Shown: in pieces, positions 5,066 through 41,323 of the stretch | Layout: every line of letters starts with the position of its first letter | Numbering within the stretch: position 1 is the first letter of the stretch | NCBI GenBank assembly: GCA_049472355.1 | Contig: JBLIRP010000004.1 | Coordinates: 1 to 64,000 of the forward strand | DNA: 64,000 nucleotides | Direction: 5' to 3' | DNA from: a bacterium | GTDB lineage: Bacteria; SZUA-182; DTGQ01; JAFGSM01 | Notes under the pieces: model-generated | Seen by the model: only the letters and a program-made list of their open reading frames with translations | The model's database searches: none | What the model was told of the DNA's origin: nothing | Position numbers and translations under genes: made by a program

Positions 5066-5416
5066 GGTGATGGATGGTGATAGACATCGGCACCGACACC
5101 TCTGTGTCTAATTCCTTTATCGGCCGCGTATGGCAAAAACTTTGCGCAAATCGCGCATGTAACAACGTAAGTGCTCTTAAAAATGCCCGTCAATTTGGTA
5201 TAAGAAACCTCCTCGGGAGGGTTGCCCGGTTCCAGAGAGTGGTCGTTGTATGGGATAAGGCCCGAAAAACCCGCATCACTCCTTGCCTCAGGGGTAGTAA
5301 AGGTCATCGGGTCGCGGGAGCGCGATTGTTGTTGCACCACGCCCCGCGCTTTAGTAAGCTATGAGAAACCACGATTCACTGGATGAACACCAAAGGACTC
5401 CGGAGGAGCGAGCAGT

Positions 5417-6385
5417 TTGGAAACCCATAATCCTCACAGAGCGATTACCGGCAACCCTCCCGACCCTATCACCCTGTCCGGGAAGGAATCCTATCACCTG
5501 CAGTTTCGTTTCGAATACGGCTTTCTGGACGATGGGACCCTCTGGATAAGGACCCCCGCAAAGGGCCTCTATCATGTGGATTGGCTCACGCTTCGCCTGC
5601 TCCTGGAACTGAACGCGGGTGTACCGCTGGACACGCTCTGCAAAAAGTACAAGGTTGATCCACAGGAACTCGGAAAGCTCCTGATCAACCTGCAGCAGGA
5701 GGGGGCCGTCGTTTCTCCCAGGGAGGGCAAGATCACCCAGGCACACCAGACGGATGACATCCCTATCGCCCCCTTCGTGTTTCTCTTCATCCTGCTCGCC
5801 GCGATTCAGATCGAGTACTTCCAGGGTATGGCCCACACCTTTCGCCTCAGGCATTGGTACGAGGCCCTGCTCCTGGGCCTGGTCTCCATGCTTCCCATCG
5901 TGCTGCACGAACTGGGACACTATCTCACCTCGCGCCCCTACTTCCCTTCGCGCCTCGGTTTCACCTTCCTGTGGGTCTTCCCCGCTGTTTACATCGACAC
6001 CCATCCATCCTGGTGCCTGCCGCGCAACATTCGACTGCTCATCAACTCAGCGGGGCTCCTCGCGGACCTCGTGTTCAACACCCTCCTGATCTTCCTGGTG
6101 TTCTATAACCCTTCTTTGGAATACTATGTAACCCCGCTGCTCATACTGCAGTACACCCGCTGGAGCATCATTCTCAACCCCCTGGTAAACGGCGACGGAT
6201 ACTGGCTCCTCTCCGACTTCACCCGCACCGTCAACATGCGCCAGAAGGCATGGAAGTACCTTCGCACCCGGCGTTTCCACTGGCTTTCACTCTACGGGTT
6301 CCTCGCACTCCTCTTCTCGATCTTCTCGGTGCTGGGACTCATCTGGTTTGCCGTGAACCTGTTTCGCATAGGTATATCACTATGA
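5417..6385 (+). CDS. PqqD-like RiPP recognition element (RRE) fused to an M50-family (site-2 protease-like) integral membrane zinc metalloprotease. It has a TTG start with a GGAGGAG SD 8 nt upstream.
   Basis: The N-terminal ~100 aa (YHVDWLTLRLLLELNAGVPLDTLCKKYKVDPQELGKLLINLQQEGAVV) fit the PqqD/RRE pattern. The membrane domain has HELGH (HExxH) within a TM helix and a downstream NPLVNGDGYWLL (LDG-type) motif, as in M50 peptidases. It is divergent from atpB and directly upstream of the rSAM genes. Confidence 0.7.
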   Translation: METHNPHRAITGNPPDPITLSGKESYHLQFRFEYGFLDDGTLWIRTPAKGLYHVDWLTLRLLLELNAGVPLDTLCKKYKVDPQELGKLLINLQQEGAVVSPREGKITQAHQTDDIPIAPFVFLFILLAAIQIEYFQGMAHTFRLRHWYEALLLGLVSMLPIVLHELGHYLTSRPYFPSRLGFTFLWVFPAVYIDTHPSWCLPRNIRLLINSAGLLADLVFNTLLIFLVFYNPSLEYYVTPLLILQYTRWSIILNPLVNGDGYWLLSDFTRTVNMRQKAWKYLRTRRFHWLSLYGFLALLFSIFSVLGLIWFAVNLFRIGISL

Positions 6386-6406
6386 GGGTCTAACCCTTCG
6401 AGGGAG

Positions 6407-8461
6407 ATGACAATGAACTATGCCTTTCTGAAGATACTGTTGATCATACTGGGCGGCATTGCCCTGGTAGGCTCTTCGATGAAGATCATGAAGGAATATG
6501 AACGGGCCGTGGTCTTCCGCCTGGGAAAACTCCTTGGCACCAAGGGTCCCGGCCTGATATTCCTTATACCCCTCTTTGACCGGATCAAGACGGTGGACCT
6601 TCGGCTGGTGTCCATCGACGTGCCGCGGCAGGACATCATGACCAGAGACAATGTGCCGGTCACCGTGGACGCGGTGGTCTATTTTCAGATCACCGACCCC
6701 TCGTGCGCGGTCATCACCATCCAGGACATCTATCAGTCCACCTTCCTCATCGCCCAGGCGACGCTGCGCAACGTGCTCGGGCAGGTGGAACTGGATGATC
6801 TGCTCAGCCAGCAGACCAAGATAAACGAACAACTGGAGAAGATCATCTCCGTACATACCAAACAGTGGGGGATCCGGATTTCCATCGTGGAGATCAAGGA
6901 GGTCACCCTGCCGGAGCAGATGAAACGGGCCATGGCCAAACAGGCGGAGACGGAGCGGGAGCGGAGGGCCAGGCTCATCGATGCCCAGGCCGAGTATCAG
7001 GCCTCCCGGACCCTGGCGGATGCGGGAAGGATCCTGGCCCAGAATCCCCAGGGATTGCAGCTCCGCTATCTGCAAACCCTTAGGGATATCTCCTCGAACA
7101 AGGGCTCCACCATACTCTTTCCCATGCCGCTAAACCTCCTGAGCCCCTTCCTGGACAGGGTGGGCGAGGTGTTCAAGACCGCACGGGGTACACAGCCATC
7201 TGAGGCGGAATCCATCCCTGCCGGAAGGAGCGCATCCACACCTGCAGTCGAGCCCCTCACGGAAAAGCATAAGTCCGCAACCCCGGTTGCCGAACCATTT
7301 CCGGTGAATGAAAGGCCAGCAGCCACGCCCGCCGAGCCCCTCTTCGCGCAGACAAAAACCGCACCCCAGGCAGCCGTTCCGCAGGGCGACCTCACAGAGC
7401 AATCGCTCATCGAACGATATACCAAACGCACCGCGGAAGGGGGGGTGGTGCCGCGGTTCGTGCAGTGGGTGCTCACCGATCGATGCCAGTTTCAATGCCC
7501 CCACTGTGATACCGCCGCCGGGGGGCCACAGGAAGGCGAGCTTACCACTGAGCAGGCACACAAGGTGGTGGACGACCTTGCCGCGATGGGATGCGAGTTC
7601 CTCTCCCTCACCGGCGGAGAGCCGATGCTGCGCGAGGATTTCTTTGCCGTCGCCTGCTATGCCAAGGAGAAGGGATTGCCCCTCGGCCTGACCACCAACG
7701 CGCAGGCCGTCGAGGAGCACCTTGCAGCGCTTGCCGATCTCAAACTCGATTCGGTGGTGGTGACCCTGGACGGCTACGGCGACGTCCAGAACAGGATACG
7801 CAATGCGCATGATTCCTACGAGCGGGGGATCAGGGGGATCGAGTTCTTCCACGATATCGGCGTTCCCAGGATCTGCGTGTCCACGATCCTTGTCGAGGAG
7901 AGCCTCGCCGGGCTCCCCCGTTTGACGGAGGATGTGTTCCGGTCAGGCGCCAATCTGATGCAGGTACAGCCGCAGGTATACCTGAATGGCCGACCGGAGC
8001 GCAACACGCCCGAGGTGGTGAAGGGGGCCTTCAAATTCATCCTGGGGGCCCGAACACGCGGATTTCCCGTGGAGGCAGGGGAACAATTCGGCTTTCTTGG
8101 CCCCCTGGAGCAGATCCTGAGGCCATCCCCGTTTTTCTGCGGGTGCGGGTGGAACACCTTTTGCATTACCAACAATGGAACGATCCAGGGCTGTCAGGCC
8201 TTGTCCCGTACGGATATCCGCGAGGGAAACTGCACGCAGGATACATTAAGCATAATATGGCAGGAGGGTTTCACGTCTTTTCGTAAAGAAACACCCGAAT
8301 CCCTTCCGGAGGGATGTCGGCGATGCCCTCACCTTTCCGTGTGCAGGGGGGGATGCTGGATCCTCCGCGTGTACGGGTTGAATCCCTGCTTCCTGCTGGA
8401 GGCGGAACAGGTTCACCGGGAGATTACCGATGCAGCAGCGCTATATCCTCAAACTCCTTAA
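6407..8461 (+). CDS. Fusion protein: N-terminal TM anchor plus stomatin/SPFH (band 7) domain, a Pro/Ala/Thr-rich linker, then a radical SAM domain with a C-terminal SPASM domain
   Basis: Residues ~25-245 align almost residue-for-residue with stomatin (EYERAVVFRLGKLLGTKGPGLIFLIPLFDRIKTVDLR...IAQATLRNVLGQVELDDLLSQ...GLQLRYLQTLRDISSNKGSTILFPMPLNLL). Residues ~345-684 carry the CxxxCxxC motif (CQFQCPHC), a GGEP motif (LTGGEPML) and a Cys-rich SPASM tail (FFCGCGWNTFCITNNGTIQGC...CRRCPHLSVCRGGC). The SD sits at 6400-6406; ATG 6407 and ATG 6413 are both possible starts. Confidence 0.8.
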   Translation: MTMNYAFLKILLIILGGIALVGSSMKIMKEYERAVVFRLGKLLGTKGPGLIFLIPLFDRIKTVDLRLVSIDVPRQDIMTRDNVPVTVDAVVYFQITDPSCAVITIQDIYQSTFLIAQATLRNVLGQVELDDLLSQQTKINEQLEKIISVHTKQWGIRISIVEIKEVTLPEQMKRAMAKQAETERERRARLIDAQAEYQASRTLADAGRILAQNPQGLQLRYLQTLRDISSNKGSTILFPMPLNLLSPFLDRVGEVFKTARGTQPSEAESIPAGRSASTPAVEPLTEKHKSATPVAEPFPVNERPAATPAEPLFAQTKTAPQAAVPQGDLTEQSLIERYTKRTAEGGVVPRFVQWVLTDRCQFQCPHCDTAAGGPQEGELTTEQAHKVVDDLAAMGCEFLSLTGGEPMLREDFFAVACYAKEKGLPLGLTTNAQAVEEHLAALADLKLDSVVVTLDGYGDVQNRIRNAHDSYERGIRGIEFFHDIGVPRICVSTILVEESLAGLPRLTEDVFRSGANLMQVQPQVYLNGRPERNTPEVVKGAFKFILGARTRGFPVEAGEQFGFLGPLEQILRPSPFFCGCGWNTFCITNNGTIQGCQALSRTDIREGNCTQDTLSIIWQEGFTSFRKETPESLPEGCRRCPHLSVCRGGCWILRVYGLNPCFLLEAEQVHREITDAAALYPQTP

Positions 8462-9536
8462 GGAGCGACCCAGGTACTTCCTGGACCGGATCAGGTTCTA
8501 TCCCAAGAACGTGGTGTGGGAGCTCACCCTGCGGTGCAACATGAACTGCGCCCACTGCGGGTCCACCGCCGGGCATGCCAGGCAGGAGGAGCTGAATCAC
8601 GATGAGGCCCTGGATCTCTGCCGCCAGCTCGGGGAGATGGGGTGCGAGATCCTCACCCTGCTCGGGGGCGAGCCCTTCATGCGGGAGGACTGGGACGACC
8701 TCGCCCGGTGTCTCGGGTCGCACGGGGTGCGGGTGAATGCCATCACCAACGGCTATGCCATGGACCAGGCGCTGGCCGACCGGATCAAAAAGGCACGCCT
8801 CACCAACGTGGCCGTCAGTATCGACGGTCTCAAAAAAACACACGAGAAGATACGAAGAAAGCCCGACTGCTACCAGCGGGCCCTGAACGCCCTCGACATC
8901 CTTCAAAAAAACGGGATATCCACCGCGGTGGTCACCACCATCTGCCGTGACAACCTCCCGGAGCTGGACGGCCTCTACGAGGTGATACTCCGGCAACGGG
9001 TGGAGATCTGGCAGATCCAGATCGGGGTCCCCCGGGGGAGGCTGTGCGAACACAGCGACTACATCATCCAGCCGGAGAACCTCCCGGAGCTCGAGCGGTT
9101 CACCCTGAAGATTCGGGAGGAACGACGACTGCGCCTGGATATCGCAGACAATATCGGCTATTTCGGCAGAAGCGAGGAGGTCCTGAGGGCGGGCCCCACG
9201 GCGAGGCTGCCCTTCTGGACCGGCTGCTATGCGGGGATCCAGGCCATGGGCGTCGATGCAAACGGGGACATCAAGGGATGTCTCTCCATGCCGTCGTTGC
9301 CCGAATTCATCGAAGGAAACGTGCGCAAAGAGCCCCTCAAGACGATCTGGGAAAGGCCGGGGGCCTTTTCCTACAATCGCGATTTCCGTGCGGATATGCT
9401 CGAGGGGGATTGCGCGGATTGCGAATATGGTCATATCTGCCGTGCAGGATGTAAATCCACGGCCTATTGCTTTACCGGTTCCTTTTTCAACAACCCCTAT
9501 TGCTTTCACCGGATCGAAAGCAAAGGAAGGGAGTGA
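8430..9536 (+). CDS. Radical SAM/SPASM domain peptide-modifying enzyme (second of a tandem pair)
   Basis: The motifs are CNMNCAHC (CxxxCxxC), LLGGEPFMRED and a SPASM C-terminus (GCYAGIQAMGVDANGDIKGC...EGDCADCEYGHICRAGCKSTAYCF). It overlaps the upstream gene by 32 nt, which indicates translational coupling. Confidence 0.85.
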   Translation: MQQRYILKLLKERPRYFLDRIRFYPKNVVWELTLRCNMNCAHCGSTAGHARQEELNHDEALDLCRQLGEMGCEILTLLGGEPFMREDWDDLARCLGSHGVRVNAITNGYAMDQALADRIKKARLTNVAVSIDGLKKTHEKIRRKPDCYQRALNALDILQKNGISTAVVTTICRDNLPELDGLYEVILRQRVEIWQIQIGVPRGRLCEHSDYIIQPENLPELERFTLKIREERRLRLDIADNIGYFGRSEEVLRAGPTARLPFWTGCYAGIQAMGVDANGDIKGCLSMPSLPEFIEGNVRKEPLKTIWERPGAFSYNRDFRADMLEGDCADCEYGHICRAGCKSTAYCFTGSFFNNPYCFHRIESKGRE

Positions 9537-9543
9537 TACGACA

Positions 9544-10080
9544 ATGCCGCATATATTCTTTGAACCCCTGGAAAAAAGACGGAGCACGCAGACACTCTTT
9601 CCCACGTTCGGCGGCAATACCGCCATAGCCATCTACTCGGCACCGGTGCCCGAATACGGGGTCGGGATCGGATACACCCCGCCCTCAAACAACTACCTCC
9701 TGTACGGGATCAATCCGCCTTCGAGCGGCTATTCACCGTGGTCGGGAGGGGGGCTCTTCGGGTGGTCGAATCCCTTTAACAGCTACAATCCCTGGGGCTC
9801 ATGGGGTTCATCATGGAGCTCCCCCTGGGGCTGGGGCTCATCCTGGAGTTCCCCCTGGGGTTCCGGAAGCTGGTCCTCCCCCTTCGGGGGCTTCTTCGGC
9901 GGTTTCTTCGGGGGACTCTTCGGAGGCTCTTCTCCCTGGTCATGGGGAGGCAGCCCGAGCTTCCCGGACATCCGGCTTCTGTACGGGGTTTTCCCCAATC
10001 CCACCCCTCCCACTGAAATCATCGCCTTTTACGGGGTCGGGATACCGAGTGTGAGTTCATTCTCGGGAACCCTCTGGTAG
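9544..10080 (+). CDS. Gly/Ser/Trp/Pro-rich repetitive protein (178 aa). It is the candidate precursor or substrate of the adjacent radical SAM enzymes.
   Basis: ATG lies 8 nt after the rSAM stop, with a GGGAG SD. High GC3 throughout. The sequence reads MPHIFFEPLEKRRSTQTLFPTFGG...YSPWSGGGLFGWSNPFNSYNPWGSWGSSWSSPWGWGSSWSSPWGSGSWSSPFGGFFGGFFGGLFGGSSPWSWGGSPSF..., with degenerate tandem SSWSSPWG-like repeats at protein and DNA level. There is no obvious Sec signal. The antisense ORF in the same repeats is shorter and non-operonic. Confidence 0.55.
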   Translation: MPHIFFEPLEKRRSTQTLFPTFGGNTAIAIYSAPVPEYGVGIGYTPPSNNYLLYGINPPSSGYSPWSGGGLFGWSNPFNSYNPWGSWGSSWSSPWGWGSSWSSPWGSGSWSSPFGGFFGGFFGGLFGGSSPWSWGGSPSFPDIRLLYGVFPNPTPPTEIIAFYGVGIPSVSSFSGTLW

Positions 10081-10228
10081 AAGACAGATAGCGTGTTGAC
10101 CTGAAATCGTACGAGCGCGAGGGCTTGCATTACCCATAGGATGTTCTGCTGTATGCCGAATGCGGCGTGAGGATTGCTCCGGGCTTGCGCCCCCGCAATG
10201 ACATTTGCCCTGCGCCCGATCAGAACGT

Positions 10229-10264
10229 CAACAGGCCCGGGGACGATCGTCCCCGGGCCTGTTG
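10229..10264. terminator. Perfect 36-nt GC-rich palindrome (CAACAGGCCCGGGGACGATCGTCCCCGGGCCTGTTG) about 150 nt downstream of the GSW-rich ORF. It is likely an operon terminator or protein-binding site.
   Basis: Read directly. It has a 16-bp perfect stem around a GATC centre and no T-tract, so it could be a factor-dependent or bidirectional terminator or a regulatory hairpin. Confidence 0.45.
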
Positions 10265-10724
10265 CTCTGTCGTCCGGCACTACAGACCCGCTTGTTATGG
10301 CTGCATGTTCGTAATCACTACCCCTGCCTCCTTCCGGTTGCAAACGGCATCCACCGGCACGAGATCTCCCAATGGATCGACAAGTACAACCGATGGCTCT
10401 TTGCCTTCTACTTCAATTTCGCCGGAGATGATCTCGAAGGCGATCTATCCAACCCCCTGGTATCACATTTGCTACGAAATGCCATAAAGGGGACCTGCCT
10501 CTCCGGTCCCTTAATACGAATAATACGTAAGGAACCGCGGACAGCGATTCGTATGCTGGGCATGTAAGGGAGTGACAAGCAAACATGTCCGCCCATAATG
10601 ATACAACGCCACAATCGCACATCGATGGACCACATAGGTGAAGTTTGCACTGAACCAAGTCCTCGAGTACAATGAACATGAGGGAATTTTATCCATATCT
10701 TTTACGATATAAGGGCAACATTTT

Positions 10725-11630
10725 ATGAAGGTTGGATGGTTTTTCGTTTTCTTGAAGTATTACTTCAACACCCGGTTATTGGGCAGAAGGACCCCGCTTC
10801 TTGCCGGGTTCAAGATCACCCACAAGTGCAACCTCACCTGCCGCCACTGTCCCTTCTGGCACGAAAACCTCCCCCAGATGACCTTCCAGGAGGTTAAGGG
10901 GGTTTTAAAACGCCTGCATGCCATGGGGATCAGAATCCTTCTCATCGAGGGCGGGGAACCCTTCCTCTGGCGTGATGGAGCATTCGGGCTCCAGGATGTG
11001 GTGAATGAGGCGAAGCGTTATTTCTTGAGCGTGGGGGTGACCACAAACGGAACCATATCCCTGGACCTTGATTCCAACAGCCTCTGGGTGAGCCTGGACG
11101 GACTCAGGGACACGCACAACCACATCCGCGGCCAGGACATCTTCGATCGGGTGGTCGCAAACATCGAATCCTGCACCCATCCCAACCTCTATGTCAACAC
11201 CACCATCAACAGCCTCAACTGGAAGGAGATACCCGATCTGGTCAAGTTTCTGAAGGACAAGGTCAAGGGGGTGACCATTCAGTTCTACTACCCTTATGAA
11301 AAAACGGACCGGTTGATGCTCACCAACGGACAGAGGATAACCGTGCTCGATGAGCTCATCCGGCTCAAACGGGAGGGATGGCCGGTGATCAATTCATTCC
11401 GGGCACTTGAAAACCTGAAGACCAACAACTGGACCCGCCGATGCAAGGAATGGATGATCACGAGCGTCGAGCCTGACGGCACCATCACCCAGGGTTGCTA
11501 TGTGAAGAACCGTGATACCGTGCAGTGCGAGGTATGCGGATTTTCCACCAACACCGAGATCACCCTTGCCTACGAGCTTGTGTTCGAGTCCATCAATGTA
11601 GGAAGAAGGGTATTCAACTACAGCCGCTGA
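10725..11630 (+). CDS. Radical SAM protein (third in cluster) with a truncated C-terminal Cys-rich (twitch/SPASM-like) region
   Basis: Motifs are KCNLTCRHC (CxxxCxxC), LIEGGEPFL and C-terminal cysteines (CKEWMITSVEPDGTITQGCYVKNRDTVQCEVCGF). It is preceded by an AT-rich ~650-nt spacer. Confidence 0.8.
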   Translation: MKVGWFFVFLKYYFNTRLLGRRTPLLAGFKITHKCNLTCRHCPFWHENLPQMTFQEVKGVLKRLHAMGIRILLIEGGEPFLWRDGAFGLQDVVNEAKRYFLSVGVTTNGTISLDLDSNSLWVSLDGLRDTHNHIRGQDIFDRVVANIESCTHPNLYVNTTINSLNWKEIPDLVKFLKDKVKGVTIQFYYPYEKTDRLMLTNGQRITVLDELIRLKREGWPVINSFRALENLKTNNWTRRCKEWMITSVEPDGTITQGCYVKNRDTVQCEVCGFSTNTEITLAYELVFESINVGRRVFNYSR

Positions 11631-11862
11631 ACCGCCACCCCCTCGAAACCCCATGAAGGTATAACCTTAAATTCTCTGTCAATCAATCGTTTTTCTTACC
11701 ATACCCGTTCTCAGTGACAGTTCCCATTCAGTGACAGTTCCGATTTTGACGGTCTACAGTGGAGGGAGCTATGTGTACGCAGCGATAGGGGAGGCATTCT
11801 ATGGACTACCTGTGTCTGCCCCGCTCTCGGGTTGGAGGTAAAAAAGTGGCATTGCCGTGCTC

Positions 11863-12990
11863 TCACAGGGCGAGGTTCGGTATCTGATCGATCACCAGGA
11901 ACGCAAAGGAGACCCTGCTCACGGCGTTCTCCAGAAGCATCCTGGAGTAGGCGGGATTGTGGGCACCCCTGCTCCCGTCGGCCTTCACAAAGAGGTAAAC
12001 ATCCCGGGCAAGGGTATAAATCCCGTTGATCCGGCTTATGTCCTGCCCCATTTCCTCGGCCCTTCGAATGCCCTCGGCCAGCGCGGGAAGACGATCCTCC
12101 AGCGTCTTCAAGGTGCGGGCGATCACCGCCCTCTCCTGCTCCTCCTGCGACAAGGTTTGGGCATCGTGACACTCCAGGCATGTCTGGACAGGGCGGGGCA
12201 CGCACCCCTGAGTATGGCAGTCCACGCAGTCCAGACGGACACGCTGATGGGCGGAGGCCTCGCCTGCAGGGATGCCCCCCCCGATATTCCCCAGCAGCAT
12301 GGCCTCCTGATAGATGTGGCAGTATTCGCACTGACTCCGGGAGGCAATCTCGTCGTTGTGGCAGGGAAAACAGAAATCCTTCATGGTGGGGAGGTTTTTT
12401 CCTGCCGGATCGAAACCGTGGGCTATCCGGTCATGGCACACCACACAGGCATACCCTTTTGATATGTGGAGGGCGTGATTGACCCGGATCGAAGAGCCCC
12501 GGTCCATCGTCCACGGGTCGGTATGACATCCCCGGCGCACACAGTATACCGGTTTCTCCGCCTTTATATCATCATCGTAGTTGGCAGTCACATGGTTCCA
12601 CAGGAAAACGAGCCCCCCCAGCTTCGCCTTTATCTTCCCCCCAAAACCCGGGGCGGTGTGACATGCCAGGCAATCCTCCTTGCTCCCGGTGAGTGACCCG
12701 TGAAACGATCGCTCCCATGTCTCATGGGCGGGTTTCATTTCATGGCAGAGGATACAGGACTGCGGCCGGTAGGAATACTCGAGAATAAGCGACATGGCAG
12801 CAATTGCAACCACAAAGATTCCACCGGCCCAGAAGGCGAAACGGACCGGATCCTGGTGCCACAACCTCCTCAAGAAGAAGGAAAGCCCCCCGGTCGCCCC
12901 TGTTTTGTCATGCCCGGACTGGGCGTCGGTTCCCGGTTCAAATCCCATGGTACATCCCTGTTGTCTCGTGTGCTCAAAAGGGCACTCCAA
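11863..12990 (-). CDS. Membrane-anchored multiheme c-type cytochrome (seven CxxCH motifs; NapC/NirT/NrfH-like N-terminus)
   Basis: Heme motifs are CILCH, CLACH, CVVCH, CFPCH, CEYCH, CVDCH and CLECH. The N-terminal TM helix followed by CxxCH...W..S.H is typical of the NapC/NirT family. Confidence 0.8.
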   Translation of the reverse strand: MECPFEHTRQQGCTMGFEPGTDAQSGHDKTGATGGLSFFLRRLWHQDPVRFAFWAGGIFVVAIAAMSLILEYSYRPQSCILCHEMKPAHETWERSFHGSLTGSKEDCLACHTAPGFGGKIKAKLGGLVFLWNHVTANYDDDIKAEKPVYCVRRGCHTDPWTMDRGSSIRVNHALHISKGYACVVCHDRIAHGFDPAGKNLPTMKDFCFPCHNDEIASRSQCEYCHIYQEAMLLGNIGGGIPAGEASAHQRVRLDCVDCHTQGCVPRPVQTCLECHDAQTLSQEEQERAVIARTLKTLEDRLPALAEGIRRAEEMGQDISRINGIYTLARDVYLFVKADGSRGAHNPAYSRMLLENAVSRVSFAFLVIDQIPNLAL

Positions 12991-13158
12991 GGCCGGCCCT
13001 TTTTATGCGTGCTCATTGACGCTGCTACTATTACTATCGACACTTGCACGGGGGGAACTTGCCCAATGGCATGATCATGGTCAATGGCTCAGGGGCCAGG
13101 GCCTCATATGCCCCTGAACGAAGCCAACGCAGGAAAGGGAGCACGCTCTGGCCCAGTC

Positions 13159-14136
13159 TCATTTCCCTATGTACTGGATATTCAATTCCTTGGGAAGTTC
13201 CATCTTCAGCTTTTTCAGGACATGGGCGTTGGCGTAGAGTCTTGTTTCCGCCTCCGTAGGCCGCATCACAGGAAGATCGGCAGGAGACGTCCCACTGAGG
13301 ACCTTCGCGGCCAGCTTCCCGGCCATTTTACCCACCTCCGCATAGTCAACGCTGATGCAGAGGGTCCCTCCCCGCTCCAGAACGGAGGTACTGGTCATAC
13401 AGGTGGGGATCTGCCTTCGATTGACCGTGGAAAAGATGCGCTCGATGTATCCCACCACATCACGATCGGTCGGCAGGTATATGCAACTGACCCGGCCGGC
13501 GATCCTGTCGACGTAGGCGCCGAGTGACGTAAAGTTCTTCGTGAATTCAAAGGAGATCAGCTCCATACCCTTCTTCTCCAGGATGGCCTCCATCTCCTCC
13601 TTCAATTCCATCGATCCCTTGTCCGTGGGGCTGTAAATCAGGCCGATGTTCCCCGCCCCGAACACCTTGTGCATCAGCTCTATCTGAAGGGAGGTGGGAA
13701 TGGCGATGGACACCCCGGTCAGATTCGGCTGTTTGCTGTCCCAGGATTCGATGATCCTGTAGCCTATGGGATCCAAAACCTTGTTGAAGACGATGGGGGT
13801 CTTTGTATACGCCTTGGCGACCCGCGACGTTATGGTCGAACCGTAGGTATAGATCAATTGGTACTGCGTTTGATCCGTCTGATCGATCAGGTCCTTCAGC
13901 CGATTTACATCCTTGTAGACGTCGAGAACCGTATAGTTGATATTCTGGTCGACAAATTCCTGGGCCAGCGCCTCCTTGAATCCCTTTTCGGTCCCGGTCT
14001 CACCCTGCCACATGAACATCAGGATATTCAGCCTCTTGGCCCGGGCAGGGGCGGGGAAAAGGCATACCAGGAGCGCCATCACCACACCTGTCGCCATGTG
14101 TCTGAAATGGTGCAATCTCATTATTCCTCCTTTCAC
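13159..14136 (-). CDS. ABC transporter substrate-binding protein (COG2984/ABC_sub_bind-like periplasmic component)
   Basis: A signal peptide (ATGVVMALLVCLFPAPARA) is followed by a two-lobed SBP-like sequence (IYSPTDKGSMELKEEMEAILEKKGMEL...). It lies in the same orientation and directly upstream of the cytochrome gene. Confidence 0.6.
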   Translation of the reverse strand: MKGGIMRLHHFRHMATGVVMALLVCLFPAPARAKRLNILMFMWQGETGTEKGFKEALAQEFVDQNINYTVLDVYKDVNRLKDLIDQTDQTQYQLIYTYGSTITSRVAKAYTKTPIVFNKVLDPIGYRIIESWDSKQPNLTGVSIAIPTSLQIELMHKVFGAGNIGLIYSPTDKGSMELKEEMEAILEKKGMELISFEFTKNFTSLGAYVDRIAGRVSCIYLPTDRDVVGYIERIFSTVNRRQIPTCMTSTSVLERGGTLCISVDYAEVGKMAGKLAAKVLSGTSPADLPVMRPTEAETRLYANAHVLKKLKMELPKELNIQYIGK

Positions 14137-14314
14137 TCAAAAACCACCGGAATCGCCTCCCTCAAGGATGCGACGAGTGGATTTTTTCCGCATTGTGAAG
14201 ACATGAATCCTTCTTAGTATACATCATATGCAAATCCGGTGCATGGGTCCTGCACTCATTCCCGCATGACATATCCCTAAACATTACCATTGCAGGTGCA
14301 CAAGATCAAGACCT

Positions 14315-14348
14315 TTTGTCCTTCCTTTGTCCTTCGCTTTTGTCCTTC
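14315..14348. promoter_or_regulatory. Three direct repeats of TTTGTCCTTC spaced about one helical turn apart, in the divergent promoter region between the SBP-cytochrome operon and argC
   Basis: Read directly at 14315-14324, 14326-14335 and 14339-14348. Confidence 0.35.
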
Positions 14349-14502
14349 CGGGCAATTCAATTTGGACATTTCATCAGTGGCGGGCAGACATGTTTACGGA
14401 GCGATATAGCAGGACTTGCCCTCCTTGCGGGGAACATGCTACATTATTTCGTGAGAATGCTGCGGATGCACTGAAACCATTTCGCGAAGAAAGGAACCCT
14501 CC

Positions 14503-15561
14503 ATGCTCAAGGTCAAGATCTTCGGCGCGTGCGGATACGGCGGTGTCGGCATGATCGAGCTCCTGGTCAGACACCCGGAGGCAACGATTGCGGCGCTGAT
14601 CGATGTCGAGAATGCCGGCATGCCCGTCAGCGAGGTGTATCCTCACCTGAGGGGATTCTGTGATCTCCCCGTCATCCCCCCCGAGGATGACGATCCCGGG
14701 GATGGAGCGGCCAATGCCCTCTTCTTTGCGACCCCGGACGGCGTGGCCATGGATCAGGCGCCCCGCTACCTGGCCAAAGGCGTCAAGATCGTCGACTATA
14801 GCGGCGATTTTCGTTTTTCCACCCCTGAATCGTATGCCGCCTATGCAAAGAGGATCGGCAAGCCAACCGCCCATCGAACGCCCGAACTCCTGAAAGAGGC
14901 GGCGTACGGGCTGACGGAGATCAACCGCAGCGCCATAGCTTCGGCGCGCCTCGTAGGGAATCCGGGGTGCTTTGCAGTGGCCACCATCCTGGCCTTCACC
15001 CCGCTGGTAAAGGCACGAGCGGTGGATGTCGGGAGGCTCACCTGCGACGCAAAGACCGGGGTCTCGGGTGCAGGCAAGAAACCCTCTGCGGCGTTCCACT
15101 ATCCGGGCAGGTACGAAAACATGAATGCCTATAAGATCGGCATGCACCAGCATGTGGTGGAGATCGAACGTCAGCTCTCGCTCCAGGCAGGGGGAGCGTG
15201 CAAGGTCTTCCTGAATACGCAGGTGGTTCCCCTCACCCGTGGTATCATGGTATGCGCCTATGGAACGATTGAGGAGGGATGGGGATTTTCCCGCCTGTTC
15301 GATCTCTACAGCGAATTCTATCGCAACGAGCCGTTCGTGCGCGTACTTCCTCCGGATCAGGCGCCCGCATCAAAGGACGTGAGGGGTTCCAATTTCTGTC
15401 TTTTGTCGGTGTACGTGAACGAGGCAACGGGAACCTGCCTGGTTATCGGGCAAATCGACAACCTGGTCAAGGGACAGGCCGGCTCCGCCCTTCAGAATAT
15501 GAACCTGATGCATGGCTTGGACGAAACCATGGGGCTCCGTTTTCCCCCCATGGTCCCCTGA
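14503..15561 (+). CDS. argC: N-acetyl-gamma-glutamyl-phosphate reductase
   Basis: N-terminal Rossmann GACGYGG motif. The active-site region GNPGCFAVATILAFTPL has the catalytic Cys. Length is 352 aa. Confidence 0.9.
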   Translation: MLKVKIFGACGYGGVGMIELLVRHPEATIAALIDVENAGMPVSEVYPHLRGFCDLPVIPPEDDDPGDGAANALFFATPDGVAMDQAPRYLAKGVKIVDYSGDFRFSTPESYAAYAKRIGKPTAHRTPELLKEAAYGLTEINRSAIASARLVGNPGCFAVATILAFTPLVKARAVDVGRLTCDAKTGVSGAGKKPSAAFHYPGRYENMNAYKIGMHQHVVEIERQLSLQAGGACKVFLNTQVVPLTRGIMVCAYGTIEEGWGFSRLFDLYSEFYRNEPFVRVLPPDQAPASKDVRGSNFCLLSVYVNEATGTCLVIGQIDNLVKGQAGSALQNMNLMHGLDETMGLRFPPMVP

Positions 15562-15649
15562 ATACACCCGCGTTCCCTGTGCTCCGGAAATACTGCATGA
15601 ATCCCGGCGTGCAGGTCACCAGGTGAGGATATCGAGAAAGGAACAGGTT

Positions 15650-16216
15650 ATGACCGAATCGGAAAAGAGGCTTCTTACACTGCTCGCCAACATTTCTTAC
15701 CACTACAGCCCCACACCCAGCTTCCGCCTGGCCTCGGGCAGGATGAGTCAGTTCTATATCGATTGCAAGACCACCACCCTCACCCCCGAAGGTCTCGTTC
15801 TGACCGGTGAGGTGATCTACGAAAGGATCAAGGGGTGCAACCTGCAGGGTGTGGGCGGGCTCGAATTCGGCGCCATCCCCCTTGCCCTCGCCACTTCGAT
15901 GCACGCCTTCCGCCAGGGGGTATCCCTCCAGCCCTTCGTCGTTCGCAAACAGGCAAAGGAGAGAGGCCTCAAAAAGGCCATAGAGGGACAGATCGATGAA
16001 GGTGCACGGGTGGTGGTCCTCGAGGATGTGGTGACCACGGGGGGGTCCTCTCTCACCGCAGTGGAGCGGCTCAGGGAGGCCCGCATCGAGGTGGATCACA
16101 TCCTGGCGATGGTGGATCGGGACGAAGGGGGCAAGGAGGCCTTTCTTCGAGCCGGCCTGCGGATGGAATCCATCTTCACCCTGGACGACCTCATCCATGT
16201 CCTCCAGGAGCAATGA
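15650..16216 (+). CDS. pyrE: Orotate phosphoribosyltransferase
   Basis: PRPP-binding motif VVVLEDVVTTGGS. The 188-aa product starts MTESEKRLLTLL. The longer upstream ORF extension is unlikely to be real. Confidence 0.85.
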   Translation: MTESEKRLLTLLANISYHYSPTPSFRLASGRMSQFYIDCKTTTLTPEGLVLTGEVIYERIKGCNLQGVGGLEFGAIPLALATSMHAFRQGVSLQPFVVRKQAKERGLKKAIEGQIDEGARVVVLEDVVTTGGSSLTAVERLREARIEVDHILAMVDRDEGGKEAFLRAGLRMESIFTLDDLIHVLQEQ

Positions 16217-17507
16217 ACCCATCGTGTCCCCTGACGATCTCCCCTCCCTTGTTATTGCAGACATGGAGGGAAGGATTTTCGACCATCCCTCTATGGGCAT
16301 GGCGGGCATGTCCGGACGCACCCCGTGCCTGCCCCAGCCCGGCGAAATGGTGCCCCTCCCCTTCGGAAGCACCCTTTTTTACATGCCCGGCCGAGTGCCC
16401 CTGGGATGGGACAGGGAGAAAAACCGTATCGGACCCTGTACCGAGGCAACGACCAAGGGCCGCACAGGAATGTGCTTCGCGGTTGCCGCCTTTCTCCCCC
16501 CCGGATACGTCAGGACACTCCTCCCGGCAACCCGCCTCCTCAAAGGTGCGCCAACCCTCCCCCTCTGGGCTTACGCCGCCGTGGGATGGAAGGAGGGCAA
16601 ATTCTGGGCTACCGGCATCCATGTGGATCCGAATCCGCACTGGGACCCGGTCTTCTTTCAGGATGACGAGGGGCTCACTCGACTGGTTCGCGAGGCACTC
16701 TCCCGCATGCCCGGCAACAGGCTGCTCAGCCATCTGGCGCGCTGCGCCATGGAGTATCATTGCTTTGCCGCCAAGAACTGCTTCTATCGCCGATGGGAAC
16801 TGCCGTTGCCCACCTCCCCCGGATGCAACGCCCGATGCCTGGGATGCATCTCCCTCCAGCCCGCCGGATGCTGCCCCGCCCCCCATGGCAGGATCAGCTT
16901 CGTGCCCACCGTGGAAGAGATCTGCGACATCACCCTCCCCCACCTCCTGGAGGCGGAGGACCCGATCGCCAGTTTCGGGCAGGGATGTGAAGGCGAGCCC
17001 ATCCTCCAGGCAGGAGTGATCGAACGGGCAGTGGAACGGCTCAGAACACACACCACGCGGGGGATCATCAACCTCAATACGAACGGGAGCAAGCCGGATG
17101 TCATCGACCGGCTCTGCAAGGCAGGGACGGACAGCATCAGGGTCAGCCTGAATTCACCCCATCCGCCGTTCTTCACTACATACCATCGGCCAATGGGGTT
17201 CTCTTTGCAGGAGGTCAAAGCGTCGCTCATCCTGGCCCGTGAGGCGGGCGCCTCCTCCGCAATCAATCTCCTCGTATTTCCGGGTGTCACGGACAGGGAG
17301 GAAGAGCGTGACCGGCTGGTCCGGTTTATCCGGGAAACCGGCATCGACCAAATCCAGATGAGAAACCTGAACATCGATCCCGATCTCTACTGCGCCGCAG
17401 TAACGACCGAAGGTCCCCGGTATCCGCTGCCCCTCGTGATGGCAGACCTCCAGGAGGTGTCTCCGAACCTCACCTTCGGCTATTTCAACCGGGCAAAAAG
17501 GGAATGA
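16197..17507 (+). CDS. Radical SAM domain protein, uncharacterized family, Cys-rich N-terminal domain
   Basis: CNARCLGC (CxxxCxxC) at about residue 215. It overlaps the pyrE stop by 20 nt. Its function is not recognisable from sequence alone. Confidence 0.6.
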   Translation: MSSRSNEPIVSPDDLPSLVIADMEGRIFDHPSMGMAGMSGRTPCLPQPGEMVPLPFGSTLFYMPGRVPLGWDREKNRIGPCTEATTKGRTGMCFAVAAFLPPGYVRTLLPATRLLKGAPTLPLWAYAAVGWKEGKFWATGIHVDPNPHWDPVFFQDDEGLTRLVREALSRMPGNRLLSHLARCAMEYHCFAAKNCFYRRWELPLPTSPGCNARCLGCISLQPAGCCPAPHGRISFVPTVEEICDITLPHLLEAEDPIASFGQGCEGEPILQAGVIERAVERLRTHTTRGIINLNTNGSKPDVIDRLCKAGTDSIRVSLNSPHPPFFTTYHRPMGFSLQEVKASLILAREAGASSAINLLVFPGVTDREEERDRLVRFIRETGIDQIQMRNLNIDPDLYCAAVTTEGPRYPLPLVMADLQEVSPNLTFGYFNRAKRE

Positions 17508-33692: not shown

Positions 33693-34076
33693 GGCGCAGC
33701 GTAAGCGAAGGCTCAAACCAAGCTTGCCAGGGCGGAGCGCAGCGGAGCCACTATGCTCCCCTTCCAATCCACCAAAAGGCCTTGCGACAACACCTTTAAA
33801 AAGCTTGCCAGGGCGGAGCGCAGCGGAGCCACTATGCTCCCCTTTCCATTCTCCCAAAAGGCCCGCAACTCCGCCTTTAAAAAGCTCCTCAGGCCTGGCG
33901 CAGCAAAGCTAATCGATCTCTTCCTATCACACAAAGGCAGCGTCTGGAATATCTACCTTTCCTTTGGGATCACAATCGCAATCACATCAGGCAGGCTGGC
34001 GAATATCTGCCCTGTCAACAGCGGGATTCGTAGAGCCATTGATAAATAATATGTAATTGATTATATTTGTAATATA
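33674..34076. repeat. Composite repeat element, copy 1. Partial unit overlaps the dxs stop, then two tandem ~82-bp units, a spacer, and a ~170-bp conserved module ending in a sigma70-like promoter.
   Basis: Units: aagcttgccagggcggagcgcagcggagccactatgctccccttccaatccaccaaaaggccttgcgacaacacctttaaaa, present twice. The module 33930-34076 is about 85-90% identical to 41090-41246. Confidence 0.85.
34040..34068 (+). promoter_or_regulatory. Near-consensus sigma70 promoter TTGATA-17nt-TATATT at the 3' end of the repeat module. It faces the hypothetical ORF and giant-protein gene.
   Basis: The -35 TTGATA is at 34040-34045 and the -10 TATATT at 34063-34068, with exactly 17-nt spacing. The identical promoter is found at 41207-41235. 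Confidence 0.5.
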
Positions 34077-34126
34077 CCTGAGATTGCTTCGGCTCTCGCC
34101 GTGCGCTTTGCTCGGGGCTTCTGCTA

Positions 34127-34236
34127 CACCGCCATGATCTTCTGATCACAACGAAGCATGAACGTTTTTAGAAACAAGTGATTATTTGAAAACCTTCACA
34201 TAAACCGCCATGATCTAGCGATCACAACGAAGGATG
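34127..34236. repeat. Two 34-bp direct repeats (ACCGCCATGATCTnnnGATCACAACGAAGnATGA) separated by 76 bp
   Basis: Copies are at 34127-34160 and 34203-34236. Each contains an internal TGATC...GATCA inverted repeat. Confidence 0.7.
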
Positions 34237-34359
34237 AAAATAAATAAAACAAAGGGCTGTTAAATTATTTTCTTATAAACGCAATGGCATCTTGGGGACC
34301 CCGTATCGAGTCGTCAAGGGCACCATTATAGAAAAAAATTACTGAATCGGAAAAGATAA

Positions 34360-34767
34360 ATGCCCTGGAGCAGGCGAAACGATTGCGAAATCCCTCTTTC
34401 TCGGACAGTTGCCGAAACCGAGGTTGAATGTTACGAAAAAGATGGATTACAGGAGAGGATAGATCTTTTAGGATATAGACACCGGAATCTCATTACGATT
34501 TTTGATGGTAAGATGTCGAATGTCATTGATTTCACAAACATAGTTGATCCGACCTGTTTTGATAGGCGTGACCCTGGTGGAACTGCATCACGTGCTTATT
34601 TACTGCGAAGTCAAAAAAACTGTTTATCCTCTTCCGGGGATTCCATTTTTTGCAGGGTGTTTGGGCGCTTATACCGTGGCGACCGAGGAATCTCTTCAGA
34701 AGAGACAATTTTTTCAATGACTCTCCATAGATCTGCCAGTAACAATTTTATTCCTTCCTTGCTTTAG
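34360..34767 (+). CDS. Hypothetical protein (135 aa)
   Basis: ORF between the promoter module and the giant gene. No recognisable domain and lower GC than neighbours. Confidence 0.25.
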   Translation: MPWSRRNDCEIPLSRTVAETEVECYEKDGLQERIDLLGYRHRNLITIFDGKMSNVIDFTNIVDPTCFDRRDPGGTASRAYLLRSQKNCLSSSGDSIFCRVFGRLYRGDRGISSEETIFSMTLHRSASNNFIPSLL

Positions 34768-34802
34768 CTTTTCCTTGTTTTAACAAAGTTAAGGGGGCAT
34801 AT

Positions 34803-40784: not shown

Positions 40785-40953
40785 TCTGATAAGAAATTTA
40801 ATTGTAGTCGGTGCCCAAATGGTGCCCATCGTTATGGAAAAATCGAAAACATGTAAAATCCCGAAAGGTTCATTAAGAGGGATTCTCGGCGAAAAATTAA
40901 TAAGTTCATGCCATTAAACAGATTATCCTCGACGAGTTAAGCGAACCAAAGCC

Positions 40954-41258
40954 TCAAACCAAACTTTGTTAGGGCGGAGCGTAAGCGGAGCCTCTATGCT
41001 CCCCTTCCAATCCACCAAAAGACCCTGCGATTACGCGTTTTAAAAAACTCTGTTAGGCCGAAGCGTAAGCGAAGCCACCAGACCTCTTCCTGACACACAA
41101 GGGCAGCGTTTGGCAGTACCTTCCTTCCCTTTGGGACCGACAATCGCAACCAAAACAGGCAGGCTGGTGAATGTCCGCTCTGTCAACAGCGGGATTCACT
41201 CAGCCATTGATAAATAATATGTAATTGATTATATTTGTAATATATATGCATAGGGTTT
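40954..41258. repeat. Composite repeat element, copy 2. It begins with a 24-nt duplicate of the dxs 3' end (ctcaaaccaaactttgttagggcg), then a degenerate unit and the conserved ~170-bp promoter module.
   Basis: 40954-40977 is identical to 33674-33697. 41090-41246 is about 85-90% identical to 33930-34076, including the TTGATA-17-TATATT promoter at 41207-41235. Confidence 0.85.
41207..41235 (+). promoter_or_regulatory. Second copy of the TTGATA-17nt-TATATT promoter, about 90 nt upstream of the 619-aa secreted protein gene
   Basis: Identical -35/-10/spacer to the copy at 34040-34068. Confidence 0.5.
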
Positions 41259-41323
41259 TCTCATGATTCTCCAAATTTGATGGGCCTCACTACATGATTT
41301 CGACAAGGTCATAATTGTGACAG

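Follow-up and report, generated by a model that had tools for sequence, protein, structure and literature searches.

Membrane metalloproteases of the M50 family are established leader or scaffold peptidases for RiPPs (peptides that are made on ribosomes and modified after translation), as in EpeP, TglG and TmoG, and EpeP is thought to cleave and also to export (PMC10885120). In other RiPP pathways the precursor is handled by a RiPP recognition element (RRE) together with radical S-adenosylmethionine (rSAM) enzymes that carry a SPASM domain, and in other systems SPFH proteins of the stomatin type are encoded beside membrane proteases. Components of all these kinds occur side by side in a gene cassette in a 64,000-nucleotide (nt) stretch of bacterial DNA, called the window below (contig JBLIRP010000004.1 of assembly GCA_049472355.1, positions 1 to 64,000 of the forward strand; GTDB lineage Bacteria; SZUA-182; DTGQ01; JAFGSM01). 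A sequence-only reading of the window had listed five co-directional open reading frames (ORFs) at 5417-11630 as one peptide-modification pathway, and all five are present on the plus strand at the coordinates it gave. They are called here gene A (a predicted RRE joined to an intramembrane M50-type protease), gene B (an SPFH-rSAM/SPASM fusion), gene C (a second rSAM/SPASM enzyme), gene D (the candidate precursor) and gene E (a third rSAM enzyme). A-B-C-D is read as a RiPP-like maturation operon that would assemble at the cytoplasmic face of the membrane, a reading to which a probability of roughly two in three is given. Judged from sequence comparisons, the cassette is a real, conserved and rare gene system with the logic of a RiPP pathway and a new architecture.

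The cassette resembles several described systems and differs from each. In the epipeptide (YydF/EpeX) and daptide clusters, as here, a membrane HExxH metalloprotease (YydH/EpeP) is encoded beside a tailoring enzyme and a precursor. However, their precursors are short, the epipeptide enzyme YydG is an epimerase, daptide chemistry is of another kind, and A scores only about 50 bits against the cut-offs of 225 and 300 for the two protease families. Cleavage and export of the EpeP type would explain the missing transporter in the cassette. Literature searches returned no SPFH partner of epipeptide or daptide proteases, and we know of no RRE fused to them. The lasso peptide B proteins share with A an RRE joined to a leader peptidase (B2), and RRE-dependent proteolysis is documented, but the lasso protease is a soluble transglutaminase-like Cys type, whereas that of A would be an intramembrane zinc enzyme, and the cassette has no lasso cyclase. 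In PqqD/PqqE and MftB/MftC the SPASM enzymes have no N-terminal RRE, like C and the rSAM part of B, the RRE is supplied in trans and the substrate motif contains Tyr; in the cassette the RRE sits on the protease instead of being free or on PqqC, the precursor is long and has many motifs, and genes of the PqqB/C or MftD/E type are absent. HflK/C-FtsH and stomatin-NfeD likewise pair an SPFH protein with a co-conserved membrane protease encoded beside it. Here, in contrast, the protease is of the S2P/M50 type and bears an RRE, the SPFH domain is fused to an iron-sulfur (Fe-S) radical enzyme, and the role appears to be in biosynthesis, not in quality control. TIGR04103 (nif11-class maturase 3) and TIGR03913 (GDL-motif, 'rad_SAM_trio') are, like C, SPASM peptide maturases found in small conserved cassettes, but C scores well under half of their cut-offs and there is no Nif11 or GDL-motif precursor.

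The arrangement looks undescribed. Neither A nor the rSAM part of B or C reaches the cut-off of any curated family, and D is without a family. None of the curated NCBIfam models fits A, D or the SPFH partner as part of a system. In the searchable literature, which did not cover Haft & Basu 2011, nothing relevant links SPFH, band 7 or stomatin proteins to radical SAM enzymes or RiPPs, and searches for TIGR03913, TIGR04103 and the GDL motif gave nothing relevant either. The graspetide surveys that were covered contain no M50 or SPFH terms. The sequence-only reading did not recognise the domain arrangement as a described system, and neither a curated family nor a searchable paper describes it. 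In the public record the genes are labeled only 'SPFH domain-containing protein', 'radical SAM protein' and 'hypothetical protein', the last being the PGAP name of D (hypothetical protein ACMUIL_01170).

Gene A is predicted to hold the sole RRE of the operon, fused to an S2P/M50 intramembrane protease. The M50/S2P family has two motifs that supply zinc ligands, HExxH and NPxxxxDG. In A, HExxH (H164/E165/H168) lies in a predicted transmembrane helix and is followed downstream by the NxxPxxxxDG-type element that would give the third zinc ligand (NPLVNGDG; NPxxxxDG with N254, P255, D260 and G261); both motifs are invariant in the 25 homologues compared, and the S2P core fold is present. An AlphaFold2 model built on the alignment of these homologues has a mean predicted local distance difference test score (pLDDT) of 84 and a predicted template modelling score (pTM) of 0.76, and its residues 30-94 fold as three beta-strands and then three helices, the topology of PqqD and RREs. 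Foldseek searches gave E-values that are not significant, the two most probable local matches being the RRE-bearing RiPP proteins TigE and TfuB1 (the latter, bound to its leader, being the best structural match of the RRE), with TbiB1 and CteB among the next-ranked. A PqqD-like winged helix of the kind expected in a RiPP cluster is in this way supplied by A, and since A has no signal peptide, its RRE would be cytoplasmic.

The fusion of an RRE to an M50 protease had been proposed from the sequence together with a check by Pfam. The motifs and the predicted structure agree with the fusion; the Pfam models suggested for the purpose cannot deliver it, as A gives no match to the PqqD model and only 15.7 bits (E 0.0095, over a short stretch) to PF02163, below the threshold of 27.2. 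Comparison of an A profile with PDB sequences also gave non-significant matches only (a Zalpha winged helix at E 0.08, MjS2P at E 0.49). A is a divergent branch of the M50 superfamily. Its only NCBIfam matches, at E 1e-12 to 1e-13, are NF058609 (YydH/LiaK; 47.5 bits, trusted cut-off 225) and NF041824 (daptide HExxH protease; 49.7 bits, trusted cut-off 300), and by these scores it is related to both protease families and a member of neither. The family is small, with 39 clusters in a set of 5.8 billion protein clusters; in a set of 1.84 billion representatives it has 27 members at E<=1e-30, and about 45 sequences span both domains. Relatives of the protease domain alone number in the thousands, and the ten sampled resemble daptide or YydH proteases. 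A metagenome scan with the A profile and generic protease patterns found 14 distant protease-only relatives (26-33% identity), none of them with an RRE or SPFH.

The N-terminal part of gene B has both hallmarks of an SPFH/Band 7 protein, a PF01145 match above threshold and an N-terminal anchor, and it is about 50% identical to animal stomatins. Stomatin relatives of B in other bacteria are fused to NfeD or to ClpP-type protease domains (P0032, P0108, P0115; Pfam). Fusions of SPFH to an rSAM enzyme number about 20 (619-884 amino acids, aa) among the 5.8 billion protein clusters, all in the family of B itself, and the other matches are SPFH only. With an Fe-S enzyme joined to it, the SPFH part of B would have to face the cytoplasm.

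In both B and C the CxxxCxxC motif of the rSAM core and the Cx2Cx5Cx3C motif of the SPASM domain are intact, and both domains score above their Pfam thresholds, which upholds the proposed identity of B as an SPFH-rSAM/SPASM fusion and of C as a second rSAM/SPASM enzyme. The top curated families of the two are peptide maturases (TIGR04103, TIGR03913, TIGR04133, MftC, StsB, WgkB and PqqE), none of them at its cut-off. The best NCBIfam matches of C are TIGR04103 (290 bits; trusted cut-off 725) and TIGR03913 (248 bits; trusted cut-off 591.75), to which B scores 115 and 110 bits, below the same cut-offs. For MftC (TIGR03962, cut-off 265) the scores are 118.5 bits for C and 111.5 bits for B, and for PqqE (TIGR02109, cut-off 381) 94.8 and 82.8 bits, so neither cut-off is reached. 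The sequence-only reading had allowed that the enzymes might turn out to be anaerobic sulfatase maturases acting on a distant sulfatase. This is not what the scores show: B and C score best against peptide maturases, the sulfatase maturase family TIGR03942 is outside the top 25 families for both, and there is no sulfatase among the neighbouring genes checked. The nearest solved relatives of C and of the rSAM part of B are SkfB, PqqE, CteB and SuiB. C aligns from about its residue 25 to about residue 100 of the RRE-bearing SkfB, CteB and SuiB, but to about residue 27 of PqqE. The alignment starts past the RRE of the former three and at the N-terminus of PqqE, which indicates that C and the rSAM part of B have no RRE of their own.

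Gene D is built like a RiPP precursor: its leader is conserved, its core varies, and it lies beside tailoring enzymes. Its first 19 residues are almost invariant in 16 homologues (MxHIFFExLExRxSTQ, with M1, H3, F5, F6, L9, E10, R12, S14, T15 and Q16 invariant). The core varies, whole YG[VI] units being gained or deleted between homologues, while the order of its blocks is kept: IAIYSAP, LLYGINPP, FPWSGGGLFG, WTNPFNSYNPW, FSPIWNFFGGLFGG, PDIRLLYGVFPNP, PPTNIxAYYGV and then an aromatic end. In the window protein the centre of the core contains W/F-x-N/S-P and a GGLFGG region, the C-terminal residue is aromatic, and S, G, P, F and W account for 31, 31, 23, 16 and 13 of the 178 residues. The gene contains short tandem DNA repeats. 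Family members are 170-250 aa long. The repeated Tyr motif has the context [L/Y]-Y-G-[V/I]-x-x-P and occurs 4-9 times per precursor; in the 30 D sequences of the related loci described below (clade 1) Y[GA][VILAPT] is observed 140 times, against 36.9 +/- 5.7 in shuffled sequences. Y-G-[V/I] would also fit the aromatic-X-X pattern of triceptides, three-residue cyclophane RiPPs in which a 3-CyFE rSAM/SPASM enzyme links the aromatic ring of the first residue to C-beta of the third by a C-C bond, but this is no more than a resemblance.

Cys is absent from the window D and from 28 of the 30 clade-1 sequences, the exceptions being one copy in L001 (1 Cys) and the one in L011 (3 Cys). The core Cys that defines sactipeptides and ranthipeptides is lacking in D, and thioether chemistry was ruled out for this reason. 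Counted together with its leader, the window protein contains 1 Lys and 5 Asp+Glu, and the clade-1 sequences have few charged residues after the leader. D has no match in Pfam or NCBIfam, no signal peptide and no membrane segment. AlphaFold2 gives a pLDDT of 36 with no secondary structure, and D is predicted to be disordered throughout, although the shallow alignment makes this weak evidence. The sequence-only reading had singled out this ORF as a GSW-rich repetitive substrate that might prove absent or unconserved in homologous clusters. It is conserved beside the enzymes, leader included, and it does look like a substrate; its telling features are the 19-aa leader and the Y-G-[V/I] motifs, not its richness in Gly, Ser and Trp.

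A-B-C recurs in about 13 related loci from metagenome-assembled genomes (MAGs) and metagenomes, in differing flanking contexts. The order is A-B-C in L001, L003, L004, L005, L006, L007, L010, L015, L018 and L023, with variants in L011 (D-rSAM-rSAM-A-B) and L016 (A-B-E). A regular-expression scan for the D N-terminus across the loci found a leader-bearing D ORF in 11 of the 13 informative clade-1 loci, in one to three copies each; L001, L006, L010 and L023 have two or three copies that diverge from one another. The return of the gene set as one block in many other contigs puts the observation far beyond chance, and the neighbourhood check proposed with the sequence-only reading comes out in favour of A to D as a conserved set.

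Some of these loci depart from the common form. The second copy in MF1_201704_bin_296 (L011, 1712-7957) has the order D, rSAM/SPASM, rSAM without SPASM, A and B, and is without a C-type rSAM. Its precursor has no Y-G-[V/I] and 3 Cys, and keeps the aromatic-x-N/S-P motifs. L011 may represent a different modification set on the same platform. In the second copy of MAG299 (L018, 7740-12061) A is cut to the RRE only (a 207-aa ORF) and a D-like ORF of 99 aa has lost the YG motifs. This copy is decaying. Its B and C seem intact, and a complete copy (L014) is present in the same MAG. In L001 a 23-codon ORF (13822-13893) with an intact leader (MAHIFFERLENRQSTQALYGGED) and then a stop lies between two full-length precursor genes; it represents a precursor copy that has been truncated, or else a peptide made of the leader only.

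More distant members of the A family (39-48% identical) are found in rearranged clusters of Elusimicrobiota and metagenomes (L017, L019, L020, L021 and L024). A leader-bearing precursor is present in all five, and a free-standing SPFH gene in four. The leader reads [LI]F.E.LE.R[KR]ST in L017, L019, L020 and L021 and has a related form, LHFIEDLETRRNA, in L024; all five precursors share [LI]F.E.LE.R[KR], mostly followed by ST, and the leader is the only part that D shares with them. L020 and L021 have the order precursor (with KYAPPxP repeats), C-type rSAM, A and free-standing SPFH. Their precursor gene is interrupted by a masked N run in L021 (about 6290-6400) and by an apparent frameshift in L020 (6248-6679), which are probably assembly problems in the repeats. 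L019 has a C-type rSAM, SPFH, a precursor with KYGPGP and MYGIEP repeats, an unfused B-type rSAM, A and an RND efflux system. Immediately downstream of its RRE-M50 gene, this locus (8954-16954; Elusimicrobiota MAG GCA_043813605.1) encodes an outer-membrane factor, a periplasmic adaptor and a pair of RND pumps, and it is the only locus with a candidate export system. The best curated matches of the C-type rSAMs of L019-L021 are again TIGR04103 and TIGR03913.

In the remaining two distant loci the tailoring enzyme is of the ATP-grasp type. L017 (7025-11761; Ca. Ruminimicrobiellum bubulum, JAGCCP010000018) encodes an ATP-grasp enzyme, A, SPFH and a precursor of 657 aa in which TTKSIGEEGATTKNEGGADV (TTKSIGEEG) is repeated about 25 times in near-identical form, an unusually large multi-core graspetide candidate. 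L024 encodes a 59-aa precursor (…LHFIEDLETRRNAAGITTMAIGEETGGGWW), an ATP-grasp enzyme and an A-like protein, with no SPFH beside them on the short contig. Both L017 and L024 are genuine ATP-grasp clusters; their cores are of the TTxxIGEE form, and they have the same RRE-M50 protein. Group 2 graspetides (plesiocin, with LFIEDL, TTxxxxEE and the ATP-grasp enzyme PsnB) have the [LI]F.E.LE leader and a multi-repeat precursor in common with this family, and the D leader resembles the LFIEDL leader of plesiocin. The window cassette differs in having no ATP-grasp ORF in 5417-11630 and a D almost without Thr/Lys/Glu/Asp pairs, and is not itself a graspetide cluster. The comparison of distant loci indicates that the constant set is the leader and the RRE-protease, with SPFH in four of five, and that the tailoring enzyme is exchangeable. 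By the Rosetta-stone argument, the separate SPFH and B-type rSAM genes of L019 suggest that their fusion in the window reflects a functional association.

The mechanism proposed for the operon combines these elements. The RRE of A would dock the D leader, as PqqD does for PqqE, and in this way offer the core to C and to B's rSAM domain. B and C would install radical cross-links or other C-H functionalisations, most plausibly Tyr- or Trp-centred C-C or C-O bonds; as D has no Cys, thioethers could not be among them. C most likely acts at the [L/Y]-Y-G-[V/I]-x-x-P motifs and B on the central aromatic-x-Asn/Ser-Pro region, an assignment made tentatively on the grounds that L011 lacks both the C-type rSAM and YG[VI]. 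The leader would then be cut off by the protease of A, which may also deliver the product to the membrane or across it, as has been suggested for EpeP/YydH. By analogy with HflK/C-FtsH and stomatin-NfeD, the SPFH domain would oligomerise into a membrane microdomain or cage around the protease, keeping enzymes and substrate together. The platform, consisting of the leader and the RRE-protease and usually SPFH, would be modular, with relatives using unfused rSAMs or an ATP-grasp ligase.

Several points weigh against this reading. The evidence is comparative throughout, B and C are matched to particular motifs on the basis of very few natural variants, and the scaffold role of SPFH is by analogy only. 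D is far longer than classical RiPP precursors, and the cassette has no conserved gene for a transporter or for immunity. The graspetide LFIEDL leader is bound by the ATP-grasp enzyme itself and not by an RRE, so the pairing of leader and RRE in the cassette is our inference. L015 has no adjacent D. In one MAG (GCA_016934595.1) A and B are followed directly by a homologue of E (L016, 8998-11934), and C-D-D2 lies on another contig (L022, 347-2988), which is either a real rearrangement or a chimeric assembly.

Some of the same observations could be accommodated by a D with a structural or material function, such as a polymer associated with the envelope or matrix and rich in aromatic residues, Gly and Pro. 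The enzymology would be the same, with B and C cross-linking the polymer and the S2P-like protease releasing or inserting D at the membrane within a stomatin microdomain. The length of D (170-250 aa, with 657 aa in L017), its nearly uncharged W/Y/F/G/P-rich composition and the order of blocks kept along its full length, which is untypical of hypervariable toxin cores, are in line with such a role, as are the absence of conserved transporter, immunity or regulator genes and the location among housekeeping genes (ATP synthase, endonuclease III). D has, however, no signal peptide or membrane segment, and the divergent multi-copy D paralogues and graspetide-type relatives look like natural-product precursors; the structural role is considered rather unlikely. 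A cofactor or small-molecule factory is very unlikely. Each Y-G-[V/I] unit would then be cross-linked and excised as a small Tyr-derived molecule, following the logic of PQQ (Glu-Tyr), mycofactocin (Val-Tyr) and the pearlins, in which the M50 protease TglG releases the product. Repetition of the Tyr motif, the partial similarity of B and C to PqqE and MftC, the release of small products by M50 proteases in pearlin pathways and the redox surroundings (cytochromes and ATP synthase nearby) would all suit a factory. But the PqqE and MftC scores are far under the cut-offs and lower than those of peptide-maturase families, downstream tailoring enzymes (oxidase, glycosyltransferase, PqqB/C-like) are absent, the ATP-grasp relatives point to macrocyclic peptides and not to cofactors, and the conserved D blocks outside the motifs would be left without a role. 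It is hardly credible that D is a spurious low-complexity ORF, with A and B serving general membrane quality control (SPFH plus protease) and the rSAMs acting elsewhere. The low complexity, the missing family match and the predicted disorder of D would permit this, and SPFH-protease pairs are generally housekeeping, as is well established. The conservation data have nevertheless largely refuted it: the frame, the start codon with its Shine-Dalgarno sequence and the 19-aa N-terminus are kept across insertions and deletions, as far as relatives from other phyla whose A is 39-48% identical, and D is duplicated in several loci. A also carries an RRE, a domain for docking peptide substrates, and the rSAMs score best against peptide maturases.

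The inclusion of E, which would make all five genes one pathway as the sequence-only reading had it, is improbable. E is co-directional and downstream of the cassette in the window and in L007 (91% identity), L010 (82%), L016 (77%) and L023, and in L016 it follows B directly. These loci make up the closest, ATP-synthase-linked sublineage, and it is only there that E is found downstream of the cassette; it is absent from L001, L003, L004, L005, L006, L011, L015, L017-L021 and all distant loci. In the window E is separated from D (stop at 10080, E start at 10725) by a spacer of 644 nt with a strong hairpin and with promoter-like sites ahead of E (10572-10599 and 10644-10673). This spacer is 74-84% identical to L007, against 90-98% for the genes, and evolves like non-coding DNA. 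A decayed second D copy in the spacer was considered and rejected, since the spacer does not resemble D genes. E lacks a SPASM domain and shows affinity with DUF3463/PTO1314/HpnH-type enzymes (Pfam, NCBIfam), and it keeps synteny with a NapC/NirT cytochrome on its other side. On sequence grounds E is probably a neighbour outside the cassette, and the claim of a fifth pathway member is dropped.

The layout of A-B-C-D is compact (Table 1). The A stop (6385) and the B start (6407) are 21 nt apart, B and C overlap by 32 nt (8430-8461), and 7 nt lie between the C stop (9536) and the D start codon ATG (9544), with a Shine-Dalgarno-like GGAAGGGAG ahead of D; the four genes look like one tightly coupled operon. 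Upstream, window positions 5100-5400 are 93-98% identical to L007, which is the level of coding sequence, and the elements at 5107-5230 belong to a probable promoter or 5' untranslated region, either of the cassette or of the ATP synthase operon. No Rfam match was found in the whole window or in this conserved upstream region. Downstream, the elements at 10172-10264 probably mark the end of the operon. The spacer around the 32-nt element is not conserved, and the 16-bp hairpin has no U-run after it and is therefore not a canonical intrinsic terminator.

Table 1. Coordinates of the cassette, its domains and the flanking elements in the window
Feature	Position (nt)	Strand	Description
Gene A	5417-6385	+	322 aa, TTG start
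A, N-terminal cytoplasmic domain	5417-5749	+	residues 1-111; predicted PqqD-like RRE, beta3-alpha3 winged helix
A, membrane domain	5750-6385	+	residues 112-322; predicted S2P/M50-type intramembrane zinc metalloprotease, HExxH 164-168, NPLVNGDG 254-261
Gene B	6407-8461	+	684 aa
B, N-terminal membrane anchor		+	residues ~5-27; hydrophobic segment within residues 1-29
B, stomatin-type SPFH domain	6485-6994	+	residues 27-196; Band_7 PF01145 1.6e-37, 129.7 bits vs 23.6
B, variable Pro/Ala/Thr-rich linker	~7172-7426	+	
B, radical SAM core	7469-7891	+	residues 355-495; CQFQCPHC; PF04055 1.8e-23, 84 bits
B, SPASM domain	8138-8329	+	residues 578-641; CRRCPHLSVCRGGC; PF13186 1.7e-6, 28.6 bits
Gene C	8430-9536	+	368 aa; soluble radical SAM/SPASM, CNMNCAHC, CADCEYGHICRAGC, no N-terminal RRE; PF04055 1.1e-24, 87.9 bits; PF13186 2.2e-7, 31.5 bits
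Gene D	9544-10080	+	178 aa
D, leader	9544-9600	+	residues 1-19; MPHIFFEPLEKRRSTQTLF, conserved N-terminal tag
D, core	9601-10080	+	residues 20-178; Cys-free, nearly uncharged, S/G/P/F/W/Y-rich
D, Y-G-[V/I] motifs	9655, 9703, 9982, 10030	+	Y38, Y54, Y147, Y163
Gene E	10725-11630	+	301 aa; radical SAM enzyme, CNLTCRHC; Radical_SAM 6.5e-14; DUF3463 just under threshold; no SPASM
Conserved block	5107-5143	.	TCTAATTC..TATCGGCC..AAAAACTTT; invariant across six loci; lies between minus-strand atpB and gene A
Hairpin	5204-5230	.	GAAACCTCCTCGGGAGGGTTG, conserved CCUCC-UCGG-GAGG; same atpB/gene A divergent intergenic region
32-nt element	10172-10203	+	GATTGCTCCGGGCTTGCGCCCCCGCAATGACA; follows the last D gene in L010 and L023 (blastn, 90.6% identity across 32 nt)
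Perfect 16-bp GC-rich hairpin	10229-10264	+	read in the sequence; RNA fold z = -2.9

The neighbours of the cassette are of the housekeeping or redox type (ATP synthase, endonuclease III, cytochromes). A fourth radical SAM gene, at 16197-17507 of the window (436 aa), has its rSAM domain in the C-terminal half; its synteny is kept in L023, and nothing evident ties it to the cassette. Window positions 34000-42000 have a GC content of 0.455-0.51, compared with about 0.55-0.60 elsewhere, and encode a 1993-aa protein with only an Ig-like domain match and a 619-aa protein without a Pfam match. This stretch may be a horizontally acquired island.

For the RiPP field the cassette points to a modular membrane 'maturation platform', a broader proposal that is possible but still short of an even chance. 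In it the SPFH assembly and the RRE-S2P protease would recruit interchangeable enzymes to a common leader, the precursors would be long, disordered and multi-motif, cleavage would be coupled to membrane delivery, and the rSAMs would make a new Tyr-centred modification, other than a thioether, at [L/Y]-Y-G-[V/I]-x-x-P. The chemistry is probably new, since a Cys-free precursor rich in Tyr and Trp would be acted on by two SPASM enzymes. The rarity of the system (about 40 A-family clusters in 5.8 billion) and its restriction to uncultured lineages would explain why it has been missed so far. The fusion of an RRE to an S2P protease would be a way to direct an intramembrane protease to a soluble substrate, and the swap from rSAM to ATP-grasp enzymes on one leader and protease platform would be a case of natural combinatorial RiPP evolution, useful for engineering. 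If the proposal is true, the cassette would represent a new RiPP class and the first biosynthetic role for bacterial stomatins, with an SPFH/stomatin protein wired for the first time, and here fused, to a biosynthetic enzyme, and it would offer a handle on how SPFH proteins organise membrane proteases.

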